A stretch of 19,302 bases of DNA from a virus (Duplodnaviria > Heunggongvirae > Uroviricota > Caudoviricetes), in the IMG/VR virus record IMGVR_UViG_2671180673_000002; one strand, 5' to 3'. The position numbers are program-made. Shown piece after piece: positions 12,001 through 18,000 of this stretch. Each line of letters opens with the position of its first letter. Within the stretch, counting starts at the first letter, position 1.

Positions 12001-15000
12001 GGGCAGCCAGTTGCGACGGCATATCCGGTACGGGCTTCACCAGTGTTGCCGTGATTTCCAGCCCTTCGCTGACCCGGCGCACCGTACACTGCCCCACCGG
12101 GCGGGAATGGTCATGCTGCCAGAGAAACGGGATCGCACTGCCAAACTCCGCGCCCTCCGGCTCCAGGATGTCACCATCCCGATCCGGAGAAGGCGTTGAC
12201 GCAATCCCGGTGATCACCCGTTCATCCTCACTGAAGGATTTCACCGTCAGCAGGGAACAGGCCCGTTTAAGAGTCACATCAGCCTCCTGAAAATAAAAAA
12301 ACCGCCGGAGCGGTTCGTGATGGTTACAGTGTGAACAGGGTTATATGAAAAAAACCGCATATTCTTTCTTTTTCGGTTCCGGGTTAAGGGACATCAGGGA
12401 GACCGCATTGAACAGCGCCATCAGCGGGTCAATTTTTCCCCGTCCACTGGCCTGTTTGGTGATAAGAATGGCGTTACCTTTAGGCTCCACCCGGGCATTG
12501 CCGACACACCAGGCCATCAGGGGCTGGTCACCATGCACCAGCACCCCTTCAGCCAGTTTGCGCTCGGTGGTTTTAATGGCCCCGCCCAGTTTCCAGCCCT
12601 GGCTTATCCCCACCACAATTCCGTCGGGGATCCCGGCTTCCGCCAGTGAATCCAGAATCTGCCCCACCCCTGACGGGTCAATACCGATATGGTCCAGTAA
12701 CTCAGCCTCATGAATGCGACGCACATATTCCGCCACTTCCGCCGTGTCATCCCCGACACGCCGGACAATGGTCATATCTCCACAGGCAACAAGATCCTGA
12801 AACCGGGACGCCTCGCTCTTCCGTCGGACCACCGCGGTTTCATGCGCCCAGGCATGGCCCCAGCCCAGCCATTCGCGGGTCTCCCGGTCACGCCCAATCA
12901 CATACATCCCCAGCAGATCATCCAGCCCTCCGCCGTCAATCCCCACCGTCACCACATCAGCACGACGCAGGATATCGTCCAGGCTGATACAACGGCCCTG
13001 CTCTTCCCAGAAATCAGCCCCCGCCCAGCGGTCAGAGCGCAGGGCAAGACCAATTTCCACATTGGCGTGTTTTGACATGAACCCCCGGAATGTCTCTTCA
13101 CCGGCTTCCCGGGCTTTACGGTACTCCCGGTACAGAAAGGCCTCATCCACTGAATAGCCGAGATTCGGATTGACCATGGCGAGGTTTTCCATCAGCAGGT
13201 TAGCCCCGCTTTCCACCATTTCAGGAGGGTGTTCAAATATCACCGGCAGAAAGTGCGGATCATGAATTTTGCCGTCGCGCACATCCCGGGCGTACTGCAG
13301 TTTCTGTCTGAACACCCCGGCGGGCGGTTCATTCGACTGGGTGGTCGTATACACCACAAACCCTTCCGGGCGGGAGGCAAGGCCGCCTATGGCTTCACGT
13401 AACATGTCCTCCGCCTTGCACTGCTTGCCAAACAGCCACAACTCATCAATCAGCGTACCCACGGACTTGATACCGGACACCGTATTCGGATCGGCTGCCA
13501 CCACCTTCAGGGTGGTGTCCGTCACTCGGTGGGTGATGGTCCGGATATGGGTCTGTACCTGGCAGAGGTCATCCAGATCATCGTCACGTCGTACCATATC
13601 CCGGGCAGGGTTGAAGGCGTTGGCCGCCACCTCCACAGTCGGGGCCAGAATCGTGTAACCCGCCGCCTGCCGCCAGTTCAGTAACAGTGCAGTCATCATG
13701 ATCCCCGCGGCCAGCGTGGACTTCGAGTTTTTCTTGGGGATAAGGATAAAAACTTCCTTGATATGGCGTACACCGGTCTGCGCATCGTAGGAGCCAAACA
13801 GGGCCGCCACCAGGTCAAACACCCACGGTGCACAGGACTCCCCGAACGTAGGGCTACCAGGTGCATCCACAATCCGCAGTTGTTTAAAAATCGCCAGGGC
13901 ATGTGCGGCCTCGTCCGGATAAATCGGATCCGGAATAATCGACAGCCCCTTTTTCAGGCGCTCTGCCCAGTCCGGGCAGGCTGTGCTCCATACAGGTATC
14001 ATCCGTTGCCCTCATTATCGTTATTCACCACCAGTCGGGGGGGCGGTGGCACCGCAAAACGGTTAGCCGCTTTTTTCGCGGCATCACCTTTTGCCGATTT
14101 TTTCCCGGTATCCCCTTTTTTATGGTGCGTGAACTGCGCCAGACGCCAGGCCGCATCCAGTGCCAGTTTCGGATCAATGCAGAGGTTTTCCACCAGGATC
14201 CGCCCCATGGCTTTCACCGGATCGGGAAGACCATCCTCCATATATTCAATACCAGGAGACATCACCGCGGACGGTGGCATCTCCAGATTGTTTTCGTCCG
14301 GCTGTGGTATTGCAGCCGCCTCACGGCGACGGGGTTTATCCTCCTGCTCTGATTTTTTCTGCCGGTAAACAGGAACCTCATCCACCTCCACCGTCTCGCA
14401 TTGTTTACGGGCTATAAACGCAAGCACCTCAGGATCTTTTGCCAGCTGCGAGCCTTTAACCCTGGCGGTCTTCGCCGAATAACCGGCGGCAATGGCTGAC
14501 GCTGTTTTGTTTTTCCCGGACATGAGCGCCAGCGCAAATTTTCGTTTTTGCGTTGTCAGCACAGCCTCCTCCCGGGTCCAGAACGCACTCAGCCGGGTAT
14601 GGTTCAGCCCATTTTTCCCGGCGTCTCATGCCGCAAATGTTAACTGCTGCCTGGTTAACATTTGCTGAAAAAGCCTGTTAACATTTTTTCCGCACAACAA
14701 ACTGAATAATAAAGATAAAAACCGCAAAAATGCCCGGGCAGCCAGTTAACATGTTAACTGCCCTGAAACGGGAATTTTTTCTCTGCGTGAGAGGGGGCGC
14801 GGTGTCCAAAGCGATCGTTTTTTACGCCGGATGATACCCCCCCGGGGTCGGGTTACAGTCCGATGATGTCGTCCTCTCTGCCACTACCTCCGGACACCTC
14901 CGGCAGCGTCGGGTCCGGCATATCACTCGCCGCTTCACGAGCAGACTTTTGTCGATGGCATTCGGTACAGAGCGTCCAGAGATTCGTCTCCTCATTACCA

Positions 15001-18000
15001 CCACCGAACTGAAGTGCAATTCGGTGATCGAGTTCACTGTCACAGAGGTCAACCACACGACCACAGAGACGGCACTGCCCGGCGTCCCTGAGCCAGATAT
15101 GACGCTTGAGGGAAACACGTGCACTGCCACTGACACGACGCTGTTCACCCTTCAGAATATTCACCCGTCGGGTATTCAGTGTTTTGATTCTGCTCTGGAG
15201 TGTACGAAGCTCAGCCATGTAAAATCCCCGTCATATGGCAATCAGTAAAGGAAATAAATATGTCATCGAAAAACCGTACCCGCAGAACCACAACCCGCAA
15301 TATCCGTTTCCCCAATCACATGATTGAACAGATCAACATCGCCCTTGAGCATAAAGGGTCCGGTAACTTTTCAGCGTGGGTTATTGAAGCCTGCAGGAGA
15401 AGGCTGGCAACAGATGCAACGCATCTGCGCCCGGCCAGCATGACAAATAACGAGAAATGAACGTTCGGTTACAGGAGCAGGTACCCACTGTCCTCCAACA
15501 ATATTTCATCTTCATATCCGACGGAACAATACTTACCCTGCCGGGATGTACAGAATAACAACAGAGTGATAATTAATTTCTGATGAAATAATCAGTGTGC
15601 AGAAGGACTAAAGATAAACGTTTTCTTCACGCCTTTACACGGCCTGTCCTTCTCAAATCGCCATTTTGCCATCGCCTTTACAACCTGCTCATCAAACAGA
15701 TGGTGCGGCTCTGAACGAATAAACTCAATTCGGGTGACAGTACCATCAGCACCAATATCAAACCTCACATCAACCCGTCCCTTTATATAATTTGCCGCTG
15801 CATAGGCCGGATATTGTGGTAATGCCTTAACCAACTGTCGGGGCATATCTGTTTTATGTTGCGTACAGCCCATAACCAGAGAAGACAACAAAATAATTAA
15901 CGGAAGATTTCTTTTCATTTTCATTCCCCGCACAGATAAGAATAAGTCTTATTCTAACAATGCCGCCCTGTCGGTCATCAATCCTCTGCTTAATGGCAAC
16001 GACAATTATCCGACTTAAATCACAAATCAGACACATGACATAACAGGGCTTGCGAGGTAACACATCGTCCTGTTTCTTCCACCATCGCACCGGACTGGCG
16101 ACTATGAGGGGACAACGCCGCGCTCCGTTAACGCGGTAAACCCCGGTGTGTATCGTTTTTGATTATCCCCGCACACTCGCGCAGAGGAGTCTCCCTGTCG
16201 GGCTGCGGTCTCTGTTAATGAGGGAATACAGCGACGATACGGCGCATCAGCAAAACTTAGTTCAGGCACTGAGTGCGGATATAGTCCTGTGCCCCTTCCA
16301 GCTGCTTCTGCATTGTCATCAACCGTTCTCTGAGGATGAAATAATCCCGTTCAGCGGTGTCTGCCAGTCGGGGGCCGGTTGCATTATCCACGCCGGAGGT
16401 GCCGGTGGCTTCACGCACGGTACCGGAGCAGGTGGCGTTGATCCGCAGGCGCTTACGACCAGCGGCAACATCAGCACGCAGAGTTTCATTTTCAGCTCTC
16501 GCATCGGCTAATTCCCTCGAGTATCTGGCATCAAGTTCAGCGACATCACGCTGGCGTATCTGCATATCAGTAATTGTCGCGTTCGCCAGTTTCAGCTCAC
16601 TGACTTTTTTATCGCGCTGCGCTTTGTAGGTGATGGCGTTATCGCGGTAATGATTCAGCCCCAGACTAAGCACACCACAGGCTACCAGCAGGACAATAAT
16701 CACCACACACAGAACACGGTTCATATCACCACCAACGGATTGCCCAGACCAGAACAGCAATGGCCACAATACGAATGGCAAATGCCATTGCCCGAATAAG
16801 TTCAGCACTCATCTTTTTAAAGTTCACGATTTCAGCGCAATGACCAGTTTTGCCAGCCCATACAGCATCGGAGACACAGCAATACCAACAGCCACCCACT
16901 TAATAGCAAAAGCCAGCGCTCTGCTGATGTCATCAGTCACTGTCACCCCAGCAGCCCCGACGAAGACAACATCACCCAGGCGAGGGACAGAAAAAGAGCA
17001 ACCAGCATTAGTGAAAATGAAATACCGACAATCACACACAGGACCTTTGCCGGCGTTATGAGTTTGTCTGACATAGCTACCCCTTAATTGCCACAATTAA
17101 CTGGGATACTACCCATAAAAAAGGGATGCTCCAGACCAGCAAAAATTTCCAGTTTGGTAATTGACTAATCATGAGTCGCAACTCCCTAATCAGTTTGCTA
17201 AAATCAATCAAGGCAGCCTCCCATAGCTTACTGCCATAAAAACAAAACCCCGCTTGCTGCCAACAAACGGGGTTTTTACTTTTATTCACTTACATTTTGC
17301 CAGTTCGCAGGATTTCGTGTTATCCGTCCGCCTTGGCCAACGTCATTTATTAGCAAAATATTCTGCTTATCTGTCGATTCCCCAGCACGCCAGCGCGCTC
17401 TCCTGGTCACGACGGGATACCTGACCGTAACAGTTATTTGAGCGAATACGGCAGTCCCTGCCACCGTCCTTAATCCACCAGCGAATCGCCTCACACGCTC
17501 CCCTGCGATCACCTGCATTAATTCGTTTATAAAACGTCGACGGAAAACACTTACCGGGGCCAATGTTGTACGGACAGAATGACGCGATCCCCGCTTTCTG
17601 GGGTTCACTCAATGGCACTCTGATGTTTTTCTCCACCCATGCCAGCGCCTTATCACGCTCAATGGCGTTAACCCGGTCGCATTTTTCCTTCGACAACTTC
17701 ATGCCCGGAACGACAGGTTTGCCATCCACCAGGATGGCACCGCGGCAGATGGTCCAGATACCCGCGCCATCACGGTATGCCGTGGTGTGGTTACCTTCCT
17801 TTTCATCCAGAAACTGGTCGAGAATGTCAGGCGCAGGCGCACCAGCGGCAATCAGCGCCAGAACGGCAGCCGACAGGCCGTATCTGATTTTTGCGTTCAT
17901 GGATATTTATCAGGATTTATCGGTTTCTGCCCACGGACAGGTTTATCTGTTCCGGTCAGTGACTTAAGGTTGTGATTCCGGAGGAGTCTTCAGAGAACCA

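Follow-up and report, generated by a model that had tools for sequence, protein, structure and literature searches.

The question raised by this locus is whether an AT-richer segment of a prophage (positions 14563-17366) is one accessory insertion carrying cargo genes, or a composite of parts with separate histories. The window, a stretch of 19,302 nt, is recognizable from its sequence as a BP-4795-like lambdoid E. coli prophage, and prophages at least 99% identical to it occur in about 380 complete genomes. The segment is flanked on the left by the small terminase subunit gene (13999-14562, minus strand; Pfam Terminase_2, 36 bits against a cut-off of 26.1; RefSeq “terminase small subunit”), with which the GC-rich block of packaging and structural genes opens, and on the right by the endolysin (lysozyme) gene (17367-17900, minus strand; Pfam Phage_lysozyme, 84.1 bits). 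The gene order is holin, ydfR, endolysin, a first variable slot (slot 1), Rz/Rz1, a second variable slot (slot 2), ylcI (antisense), HNH endonuclease, cos, terS, and terL. Very probably, the segment is the lysis/packaging junction of the prophage, read with the late operon from the minus strand, and is a mosaic that includes one moron cassette. Its parts are essential elements (Rz/Rz1, HNH, and cos), a conserved opposite-strand YlcI/YnfO gene, and the two variable slots. Mosaic lysis/packaging junctions are well known and much recombined, and lambda carries bor there. The locus is ordinary overall, and annotation of it already exists.

The initial annotation set GC-rich structural genes with dense overlapping-gene coupling against a segment of lower GC. 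The dense coupling is indeed seen, and GC is 0.576 in 1-14562, 0.491 in 14563-17366, and 0.522 in 17367-19302. All 2804-bp stretches of the structural part have a GC of 0.565-0.596, every one above that of the segment, and 49% of the 300-bp windows of the segment fall below the lowest structural window (0.497). The three AT-richer patches named by eye coincide with the computed ones, at 14600-14850 (0.482), 15200-16250 (0.465), and 16700-17370 (0.455); between them GC is near that of the flanks (HNH, 0.552; Rz, 0.538). The compositional shift is real and exceeds chance. In the combined check of GC and codon usage that had been proposed, GC was not uniform, and GC3 left the structural range (reference 0.637 +/- 0.053) for the TonB-like gene of slot 2 alone, at 0.407, a value to which no structural block of equal length descends. 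The pooled small ORFs of slot 1 (GC3 0.515) equal the structural minimum, HNH (0.537) lies in the low tail, and neither Rz (0.574) nor ylcI (0.576) departs from the structural range. Typical GC for E. coli is about 51%; at 49% the segment is close to this, and it counts as AT-rich only beside the structural module with its 57.6% GC. Only the cassette that carries the TonB-like gene (0.426) and the lowest patch, 17075-17366 (0.418), are clearly under typical E. coli GC. The lower, patchy GC has three sources: cos together with intergenic control DNA, short membrane-protein ORFs, and one acquired cassette of ~600 bp.

A reading of all of 14563-17366 as a single AT-rich moron island in the GC-rich structural operon, with every gene in it as cargo, takes its appeal from a GC under that of any equally long structural stretch, from the presence of the only plus-strand gene, and from genes of unknown function. 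It is highly improbable, and is contradicted by the data in hand. The structural operon is not interrupted, contrary to the earlier claim: the segment joins the lysis cassette to the packaging genes and lies outside the head and tail genes. Core phage machinery (Rz/Rz1, HNH, and cos, with GC of 0.54-0.55) makes up roughly half of the segment, which is therefore not one accessory insert. Nor does it hold all candidate cargo genes, since a NanS-p-type sialate esterase gene (18685 onward) and the low-GC3 ydfR lie outside. Alignment to relatives, suggested as a way of defining the insertion boundaries, resolved several independently exchanged modules instead of two boundaries. Comparison with four relatives places breakpoints at 15414/15470, 16066-16068, 16247/16266, ~16727-16740, 16930-16943, 17131-17153, and 17272-17281, and comparison with thousands of genomes at 16066-16074, 16128-16131, 16823, 16930-16943, 17078, and 17238, many of them internal to the segment. 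The cos-HNH-ylcI block is constant (intact in 1251 genomes), whereas the full TonB cassette (414 of 5426 genomes) and the entire small-ORF block (587 of 5426) vary independently of each other. Thus, of the earlier description, the GC shift stands and the single accessory insert in the structural operon does not.

The first AT-rich patch is not cargo but a cis-acting site, the cos region: a 290-bp gap (14563-14852, minus strand) from the HNH stop to the terS start. Across 93 phage records the region is 91-99% conserved, and its position between the HNH and terS genes is as in HK97. For phage Lys8385Vzw, a PhageTerm-derived 3′ cos end, CGCCCCCCCT, is reported at the record end (PMC7946995), and this record ends and restarts exactly at the position of 14792-14801 here, with 9/10 bases identical. 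The cosN homologue, with a 10-nt 3′ cohesive end, is accordingly predicted from the reported end of the relative at 14792-14801, reading CGCGCCCCCT on the minus strand; the basis is one PhageTerm report for a relative that is 96% identical and whose 10-mer differs at one base. Between cosN and terS stand five ATGTTAAC repeats in both orientations (14637-14758), which are all the matches to this motif in the whole window, where 0.38 would be expected; 0/200 shuffles reached five. With a perfect 12-nt inverted repeat at 14633-14665, they bear out the palindromes noted in the segment, and they are candidate small-terminase binding sites of a cosB-like kind.

The HNH endonuclease gene (14853-15218, minus strand; Pfam HNH, 33.8 bits against a cut-off of 21.4; PHROG 589) adjoins cos, terS, and terL, like that of gp74 in HK97. 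Since gp74 stimulates cos cleavage (PMC9410871, PMC11331095), the HNH protein is, by analogy, likely a packaging cofactor for the same reaction. The order HNH, cos, terS, terL is common to both phages, as are an A-tract just inside the left end and the 10-nt 3′ cohesive end, the latter reported on our side for the close relative Lys8385Vzw. However, neither the HNH protein (compared with gp74) nor TerS has significant sequence similarity to its HK97 counterpart, TerL is only 23% identical, the intergenic region measures 368 bp in HK97 vs. 290 bp here, and the repeated ATGTTAAC motif is without counterpart in HK97. Extrapolating from the 96%-identical phage and from HK97, the small terminase would probably bind the ATGTTAAC repeats, and the large terminase and HNH protein would cut cosN to yield the 10-nt 3′ end.

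Non-coding and furnished with A-tracts and repeats, the cos patch fits an explanation in which the GC dips reflect functional constraint instead of foreign origin, with no recent acquisition anywhere in the segment: cos would owe its dip to A-tracts and repeats that bind protein, the tiny membrane ORFs to the U-rich codons of hydrophobic residues, and other stretches to AT-rich promoter or terminator DNA. Slot 1 partly fits as well. It contains four small minus-strand ORFs (16726-17211), at 17077-17211 (TTG start, 44 aa), 16943-17074 (43 aa), 16824-16946/16979 (40-51 aa), and 16726-16812 (28 aa), all of them hydrophobic over a single stretch (best 19-residue Kyte-Doolittle scores 1.9-2.9) and low in GC at the first two codon positions. 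Start/stop overlaps (GTGA) or gaps of 2-11 nt couple the ORFs tightly in translation, among themselves and with Rz, and each matches a PHROG family of unknown function; at the same position, relatives carry 0-4 such ORFs or an antirepressor gene. Their sequences suggest four small late-operon membrane proteins, with lysis timing and exclusion as possible roles. The adjoining i-spanin gene Rz (16257-16724, minus strand; Pfam Phage_lysis, 168.8 bits; PHROG 13) contains in another frame the gene for the o-spanin lipoprotein Rz1 (16319-16504, minus strand; Pfam Rz1, 76.1 bits against a cut-off of 27.9), and the pair would complete lysis, as in related phages. The same explanation is also consistent with 17075-17366, which is mostly intergenic and includes the one strong terminator-like hairpin that answers to the terminators ascribed to the segment (17244-17276, minus strand, downstream of the endolysin gene). 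This hairpin, also part of slot 1, has a 15-bp stem with U/T runs on both sides and a stability of -25.2 kcal/mol (z = -3.5; 0/200 shuffles as stable), and in distant prophages, that of UTI89 among them, it accompanies the 3′ flank of the lysozyme gene.

The plus-strand gene is ylcI (15260-15460; Pfam DUF3950, 71.8 bits; NCBIfam YlcI_YnfO_N), and it is the only one, as first noted: RefSeq annotation of a 99.3%-identical prophage has no other in the 19 kb. ylcI of DLP12 and ynfO of Qin in E. coli K-12 belong to the same family, whose members stand divergently beside the first packaging gene in both Nu1-type (UTI89) and HNH-type prophages. The N-terminal 50 residues are nearly invariant, whereas the C-terminal tail varies between family members. 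An AF2 model has an extended N-terminus followed by two helices (pLDDT 72), and the best match in a fold search, a weak one, is the ribbon-helix-helix antitoxin ParD2 (E = 3.9). The product is probably a small DNA-binding protein; a literature search gave no function for any YlcI/YnfO member.

Slot 2 holds the TonB_C lipoprotein cassette (15466-16066, minus strand), made up of a gene (15592-15918) and an upstream promoter-like element (15951-15978). ON470626, identical at 99.2% and 95.6% in the two flanks, lacks the cassette, with sharp boundaries, and BP-4795 has other sequence in its place. This clean presence or absence in close relatives, the GC and GC3 of the cassette (0.426 and 0.407), and a promoter-like element kept across variants identify it, at the level of sequence, as a genuine moron, horizontally acquired, in the slot of lambda bor. 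Here functional constraint no longer suffices: the GC3 of the TonB_C gene is under that of every same-length structural block, its product is soluble and not hydrophobic, and a 99%-identical relative cleanly lacks the cassette. Constraint is therefore the right explanation for cos and part of slot 1 and not for the cassette; that it should explain the whole segment is possible, though somewhat unlikely. As a moron signature, composition thus locates a ~600-bp TonB_C cassette and not the entire 2.8-kb segment.

The putative sigma-70-like promoter (minus strand) consists of ATGACC, a 16-nt spacer, and TAGAAT with an upstream TG, and scores 9/12 matches in a scan for consensus only. The element TGTTAGAAT is retained in three close relatives, while two variants at 70% identity have TGTCAGAAT; it overlaps a palindrome, AGAATAAGTCTTATTCT (15937-15953), that is limited to this subtype. 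No intrinsic terminator follows the cassette (z = 0.1), so that one classical moron feature is absent. Beyond its boundary, directly downstream of Rz, lies a conserved non-coding block (16067-16256) within which ~1866 genomes match, with or without the TonB cassette; its RNA structure is not significant on either strand (z = -1.0 and -0.4), and it has no Rfam match. The TonB_C lipoprotein family also occurs between spanin and terminase genes in Nu1/gpA-type prophages, and in a P27-type phage at 44% identity. Lambda bor, which follows Rz/Rz1 and precedes cos and the terminase genes, and borD of DLP12 are comparable in occupying the same slot, in encoding a small outer-membrane lipoprotein, as is predicted here, in their deviant composition, and in being variably present among lambdoid phages. 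In contrast to the TonB_C gene, which runs with the late operon, bor is transcribed against it, and there is no sequence or domain relation, the protein here being a TonB C-terminal domain. Bor has been linked to serum resistance (PMC3594210).

The cassette gene (minus strand) encodes 108 aa, in which a signal peptide carrying the lipobox LVMGC is joined by about 8 linker residues to a TonB C-terminal domain that is complete (55.4 bits in Pfam TonB_C, cut-off 24.6; 55 bits in TIGR01352, cut-off 27.1). Residues 24-104 match E. coli TonB C-terminal domain structures (1u07, 2gsk, and 2grx; E ~1e-15), aligning to TonB residues of about 151-231 with the aromatic core kept. Within the alignment to TonB residues 153-231, Y163, F180, F202, W213, and F230 keep their equivalents and Y215 corresponds to F, a conservative change, while L and Y stand in place of Q160 and R166. 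The AF2 model, of low confidence (pLDDT 59), has the same alpha-beta-beta-alpha-beta topology as TonB, and its top Foldseek matches are all TonB or FusB C-terminal domains. TonB itself differs in having an N-terminal transmembrane anchor and a proline-rich spacer, where the phage protein is lipid-anchored, and in its last ~8 residues, which the phage protein lacks. The protein fails the cut-offs of all full-length TonB equivalog profiles. The lipobox is kept in homologues down to 36% identity. A literature search found no paper on the protein, and the PADLOC defence-protein library gave no match.

We favour a hypothetical role for this TonB domain, predicted to be tethered to the outer membrane, as a decoy against TonB-dependent phages and colicins, based on the complete C-terminal domain with its aromatics, the missing anchor and spacer, the conserved lipobox, and known precedents. 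The tethered domain would bind TonB boxes, whether on TonB-dependent transporters or on group B colicins entering the cell, and, because it would not transduce energy, would compete with host TonB. Periplasmically exported TonB fragments are dominant-negative for the TonB system (bioRxiv 10.1101/2020.01.05.895219); these engineered inhibitors are without a membrane anchor, and the phage domain likewise lacks that of TonB. The changed equivalents of Q160 and R166, the low confidence of the model, and the negative PADLOC search speak against the decoy.

Alternatively, the lipoprotein may serve late in infection, in lysis or egress and not in lysogenic conversion, either as a spanin-like accessory or by masking TonB-dependent receptors on lysing cells and so saving progeny from debris. 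Receptor masking against the loss of progeny on debris has been proposed for T5 Llp. The gene is co-oriented with the late operon, is always directly downstream of the spanin genes in three different packaging-module contexts, belongs to a family labelled “Rz-like spanin” (PHROG 1267), and sits in a cassette without its own terminator. Yet the prophage already has a complete Rz/Rz1 pair, the protein lacks the C-terminal membrane segment that a unimolecular spanin needs, functional relatives such as BP-4795 do without the gene, and the cassette has its own conserved promoter-like element. Such a late role is distinctly unlikely, and its receptor-masking variant shares TonB-box binding with the favoured decoy role, from which it differs in timing alone.

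The closest precedents for a decoy are Llp of T5 and Cor of phi80, HK022, and N15, phage lipoproteins that inactivate FhuA. From the periplasmic face of this TonB-dependent transporter, Llp and Cor shut out phages, ferrichrome, and colicin M (bioRxiv 10.64898/2026.03.26.714494), a mode we propose here by analogy. They have another fold and no homology to the TonB_C lipoprotein, and they are FhuA-specific, whereas a TonB domain is expected to recognise TonB boxes generally. Competition of the tethered domain with host TonB would block the entry of TonB-dependent phages (such as T1 and phi80) and of group B colicins, and the lipoprotein would then be a functional analogue of Llp or Cor built from a captured host domain.

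The AT-rich segment at 14563-17366, which runs between the endolysin gene and the small terminase gene, combines a probable cos region with core lysis and packaging genes, one conserved antisense gene and two slots at which modules are exchanged. The surrounding window comes from a lambdoid E. coli prophage: over the full 19.3 kb, prophages in ~380 records show at least 99% identity, and coverage reaches at least 80% in 975 genomes. Among named phages, BP-4795 and many Stx1/Stx2-converting phages are the closest. For the 5.3 kb around the segment, a partial match is present in 5038 of 5426 complete E. 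coli genomes, with at least 80% covered in 616. The minus strand carries every gene except one, ylcI/ynfO. In the phage's own reading direction, a NanS-type esterase gene (18685 onward) is followed by genes for a class II holin (18319-18534), YdfR (17964-18314) and the endolysin (17367-17900), then by four small ORFs (16726-17211) and Rz (16257-16724; 168.8 bits), in which Rz1 is embedded (16319-16504; 76.1 bits). Next come the genes for a TonB-family lipoprotein (15592-15918), YlcI/YnfO (15260-15460, plus strand) and an HNH endonuclease (14853-15218), a 290-bp gap (14563-14852), and the small terminase gene terS (13999-14562), after which the large terminase, protease-capsid fusion, portal, connector and tail genes follow in this order.

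Several features of the window and its copies stand apart from the segment itself. At 7543-12277, the large terminase gene (terL) is followed by the protease-major capsid fusion (645 aa, Peptidase_S78 and Phage_capsid) and then the portal gene, whose 861-residue product has a family match confined to residues 54-382 and a C-terminal extension of ~480 residues with none. The genome that best matches the window's right part (NZ_OZ547038.1, locus 11244-15003) carries a decayed copy of the prophage at ompW, in which portal, large terminase and tail genes are truncated and the stretch from the lysis genes through the TonB-family gene, ylcI and HNH to terS is still intact at 99.8% identity. The final 50 bases of the window (19253-19302) are the exact reverse complement of 18390-18439, inside the holin gene, and collinearity with related genomes ends at ~19255; this looks like a contig-end fold-back or other assembly artefact, not biology. 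Eight N bases are present, seven at 442-517 in the region of the minor tail protein L gene and one at 18299 in ydfR, which yields an X in the YdfR translation.

The lower GC content on which the initial annotation had based its reading is real, with 0.491 in the segment vs 0.576 in the structural part (1-14562) and 0.522 to the right of the segment. No 2804-bp stretch of the structural part falls below 0.565, and half of the segment's 300-bp windows lie below the structural minimum. The patchiness described by eye was borne out by computation, with low values at 14600-14850 (0.482), 15200-16250 (0.465) and 16700-17370 (0.455), set apart by HNH (0.552) and Rz (0.538). Codon usage followed the expected shift only in part: the TonB-like gene lies far outside the structural range of third-position GC (GC3 0.407 vs 0.637 +/- 0.053, minimum 0.519), whereas HNH (0.537, in the low tail), Rz and ylcI (both inside the structural range) do not, and the pooled small ORFs sit at the structural minimum (0.515). 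Among genes beyond the segment, ydfR (17964-18314, DUF1327) is also deviant, with a GC3 of 0.474 that departs about as far as that of the small ORFs, and is likely accessory. The same holds for a NanS-p-type SASA sialate esterase gene, whose C-terminal part lies at 18685-19272.

The single plus-strand gene was confirmed, as were the palindromes, and of the terminators proposed along with them one strong hairpin was found (17244-17276). Other elements of the initial reading did not hold. The segment had been taken to contain all of the candidate cargo, yet the esterase gene and ydfR sit outside it, and it was found between the lysis and packaging modules rather than interrupting the structural operon. 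Nor is it one dispensable unit absent from relatives, since it contains Rz/Rz1, HNH and the probable cos region; cos, HNH and ylcI are kept in 1251 genomes, independent of the variable cassettes. The suggestion of a moron was right for one cassette, and the segment as a whole is composite.

The first low-GC patch (14563-14852) is probably the cos region, not cargo. The gap between HNH and terS corresponds to the position of cos in phage HK97, where 319 bp separate the end of HNH from the right end of the genome and 50 bp lie between the left end and the start of terS; the HK97 HNH protein, gp74, boosts cos cleavage by the HK97 terminase, which leaves a 10-nt 3′ overhang (PMC9410871, PMC11331095). 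Phage Lys8385Vzw is 96% identical here, and its genome record has both its end and its beginning within the HNH-terS gap. Its reported 3′ cos end is CGCCCCCCCT (PMC7946995), and the window counterpart of this 10-mer is CGCGCCCCCT, on the minus strand at 14792-14801. The stretch from this 10-mer to terS holds five copies of the octamer ATGTTAAC, in both orientations (14637-14758); 0.38 occurrences would be expected in the window, and the rest of it has none. The comparison with Lys8385Vzw indirectly supports the production of cohesive ends between the HNH and terS genes, and the ATGTTAAC repeats are candidate small-terminase recognition sites. Overlap with the cos repeats led us to treat ORFs called in this region, such as a 43-aa "putative DNase" annotated in ON470626 (phage vB_EcoS-783R2, hereafter 783R2), as spurious.

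The window has HNH, a gap of 290 bp, terS and terL in succession, and HK97 has these genes in the same order. The prophage carries its protease-capsid gene between terL and the portal gene. The HNH protein shares only the HNH motif family with gp74 (best BLASTP match E = 1.1). Cos, HNH and terS are without direct homology to HK97, a weak TerL match (23% identity) being the sole exception, and because the proteins otherwise lack significant similarity, the resemblance judged from these alignments is architectural. For the HNH protein, PADLOC returned only weak generic nuclease matches. In several prophage records labelled "PPompW", homology to the gap between cos and HNH ends at ~14841, where the IS110-family element ISEc20 is annotated; this position adjoins a G-run just 3′ of the HNH stop codon and may be a preferred IS target, insertion at which would split HNH from cos.

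The second low-GC patch (15200-16250) comprises three pieces, namely ylcI, the cassette encoding the TonB-like protein and a conserved non-coding block. The first of these belongs to the large YlcI/YnfO family (DUF3950; 916 clusters) and lies divergently beside the first packaging gene, in HNH-type and Nu1-type (UTI89) prophages alike. In ylcI/ynfO genes, the N-terminal 50 codons are nearly invariant and the 3′ tail is variable, which fits a recombination joint at ~15414 within ylcI relative to BP-4795. Homology to the Nu1-type context begins exactly at the ATG, so a shared ylcI promoter is not evident. A ribbon-helix-helix fold is plausible for YlcI from its sequence pattern and from the AF2 monomer, in which an extended N-terminus precedes two helices. 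The top Foldseek match, the ParD2 antitoxin, is not significant (E = 3.9, probability 0.18); searches gave no ribbon-helix-helix match in Pfam, a weak HicB-like match in PHROG (E = 0.007) and no PDB match by sequence.

The non-coding block (16067-16256, 190 bp) lies directly 3′ of Rz and is kept at 93-98% identity; ~1866 complete genomes match within it, whatever comes next. Folding of 16060-16260 revealed no structured RNA (z = -1.0 and -0.4), and that idea was rejected. The block has no Rfam match and no convincing ORF, and an Rfam search of the wider region 13900-19302 likewise gave no match at E <= 1.

Another variable slot, lying between the genes for the endolysin and Rz, makes up the third low-GC patch (16700-17370). 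Its four small ORFs (16726-17211) encode products of 44, 43, 40-51 and 28 residues; every product has one hydrophobic segment and matches a PHROG family that lacks an assigned function. Their stops and starts overlap or nearly abut and the run continues straight into Rz, a packing that argues for real late-operon genes, and the products may be lysis modulators. The 28-aa and 40-51-aa products share matches to PHROG 4493 and 3246 and look paralogous by this measure. Relatives carry from none to four of these ORFs: UTI89 has none, strain M8 one, STEC435 two and 783R2 the same set, while BP-4795 and Lys8385Vzw hold an antirepressor gene plus one small ORF in this slot. The full block is present in 587 genomes, with recurrent joints at 16823, 16930-16943, 17078 and 17238. 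The strong hairpin at 17244-17276 (z = -3.5), with U-runs on either side, moves with the 3′ flank of the endolysin gene, distant prophages included.

In order to evaluate the cassette between Rz and the terminase genes (15466-16066), here called the TonB_C cassette after the domain it encodes, we used published moron criteria, namely presence/absence, composition, an own promoter and an own terminator (PMC3594210). The cassette is extra DNA between genes that are adjacent in close relatives: in 783R2, window position 15470 is joined straight to 16066, with flanks 99.2% and 95.6% identical, and in BP-4795 246 unrelated bases replace 15415-16067. It is complete in 414 of 5426 genomes, against the ~1866 that match the adjoining block downstream of Rz. 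Its GC content is 0.426, compared with 0.552 for HNH and 0.538 for Rz, and the GC3 of its gene is under that of every structural block of equal length. A sigma-70-like site with an extended -10 (9/12 matches, 15951-15978) lies 33 nt upstream of the start codon; its core, TGTTAGAAT, is kept in three close relatives and appears as TGTCAGAAT in two variants of 70% identity, and such promoter-like sites number five in the region vs 5.0 in shuffles, so there is no excess. No terminator was found 3′ of the TonB_C stop codon (folding of 15461-15595, z = 0.1 on the minus and 0.18 on the plus strand), and no intrinsic terminator lies between the convergent TonB_C and ylcI genes. On sequence grounds, the cassette thus appears to be a moron by presence/absence and composition, with a predicted promoter and without an own terminator. 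A Fur box at the promoter is unsupported, as the 13/19 match of the palindrome region there to the 19-bp Fur consensus is equalled at four other window sites. A target-site duplication at the cassette edges was also rejected: the 9-bp BLAST overlap between 15462-15470 (cgttcggtt) and 16066-16074 (cgtcctgtt) is not a repeat.

Relatives of the lipoprotein at ~70% identity occupy the same place in Nu1/gpA-type prophages, 3′ of Rz and ahead of the terminase genes. In another phage, one of 44% identity is flanked by a DUF2514 spanin gene and an HNH/Terminase_4 module. In other relatives a 74-aa ORF, a Rha regulator gene or a DUF1398 gene takes this place, which in lambda is that of bor.

The cassette gene (15592-15918) encodes a 108-residue lipoprotein consisting of a signal peptide with the lipobox LVMG-C, about eight linker residues and a TonB C-terminal domain. 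The N-terminus, MKRNLPLIILLSSLVMG-C, conforms by inspection to the lipobox pattern L-x-[GA]-C, and lipobox and cysteine are kept in homologues of 36-97% identity. The Asp+2 rule is used for lipoprotein sorting, and under it the threonine at +2 predicts outer-membrane sorting. The domain scores 55.4 bits against PF03544 TonB_C (threshold 24.6) and 55.2 bits against TIGR01352 (threshold 27.1), and the TonB structures 1u07, 2gsk and 2grx match it end to end at E ~1e-15. Full-length TonB equivalogs (NCBIfam PRK10819) reach 49-74 bits vs cut-offs of 265-448, matching over the last ~80 profile positions only, because the protein has no membrane anchor or proline-rich spacer. By alignment mapping, the protein keeps the tyrosine of the QYP motif and the counterparts of F180, F202, W213 and F230 in the aromatic core, and substitutions relative to TonB comprise Y215 to F (conservative), Q160 to L and R166 to Y. 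The AF2 model is of low confidence (pLDDT 59) and has the expected alpha-beta-beta-alpha-beta topology; every one of its best fold matches is a TonB or FusB C-terminal domain. A full-library search placed the protein in a wider family of ~110-residue, lipobox-bearing TonB_C proteins at 36-51% identity.

PHROG 1267 labels this protein an "Rz-like spanin". A role as a spanin proper was rejected because the protein has no C-terminal membrane segment and a complete Rz/Rz1 pair is already present; its Pfam matches are to TonB C-terminal families only, and the label was probably carried over from neighbouring genes. PADLOC returned no match for the TonB_C protein, YlcI, the small ORFs or YdfR, and the literature searched on prophage TonB-like lipoproteins, DUF3950, ylcI and ynfO contained no functional study.

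If sorted to the outer membrane, the protein would place a short-tethered TonB domain next to the periplasmic face of TonB-dependent transporters. Such a domain could bind TonB boxes while being unable to pass on energy, and would in this way compete with host TonB. We tentatively suggest, as a possibility that is on present evidence rather doubtful, that the lipoprotein acts as a general, outer-membrane-tethered TonB-box decoy, which would shield lysogens against TonB-dependent phages and group B colicins while somewhat impairing siderophore uptake. The mechanism is made plausible by the inhibition of the TonB system by exported TonB fragments that lack an anchor (bioRxiv 10.1101/2020.01.05.895219), and by the precedent of Llp and Cor, established exclusion factors that are phage lipoproteins shutting FhuA from the periplasmic side (bioRxiv 10.64898/2026.03.26.714494). 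In several lineages of temperate phages, relatives at 36-70% identity occupy this same slot behind the spanin genes. A late role, in egress or receptor masking, is the chief alternative; it is suggested by the orientation of the gene, by its unvarying location behind the spanin genes and by the lack of a terminator.

For phage specialists the segment holds no surprise: it is typical of lambdoid mosaicism, RefSeq annotation for it already exists, and it is biologically routine, the same DNA being annotated in hundreds of complete E. coli genomes. For genome scanning, it shows that a GC dip beside a phage structural block does not on its own indicate a moron, and that comparison with near-identical relatives tells a cos site, core genes and a real cassette apart. 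Only the TonB_C lipoprotein, present in ~8% of complete E. coli genomes, STEC prophages included, merits a bench test. If the decoy reading is true, superinfection exclusion or colicin tolerance would have been built from a captured host domain, constituting a new type of prophage-encoded factor, and the iron uptake of lysogens could change. The lipoprotein suggests a simple, testable route by which a prophage may close a whole class of outer-membrane entry routes.
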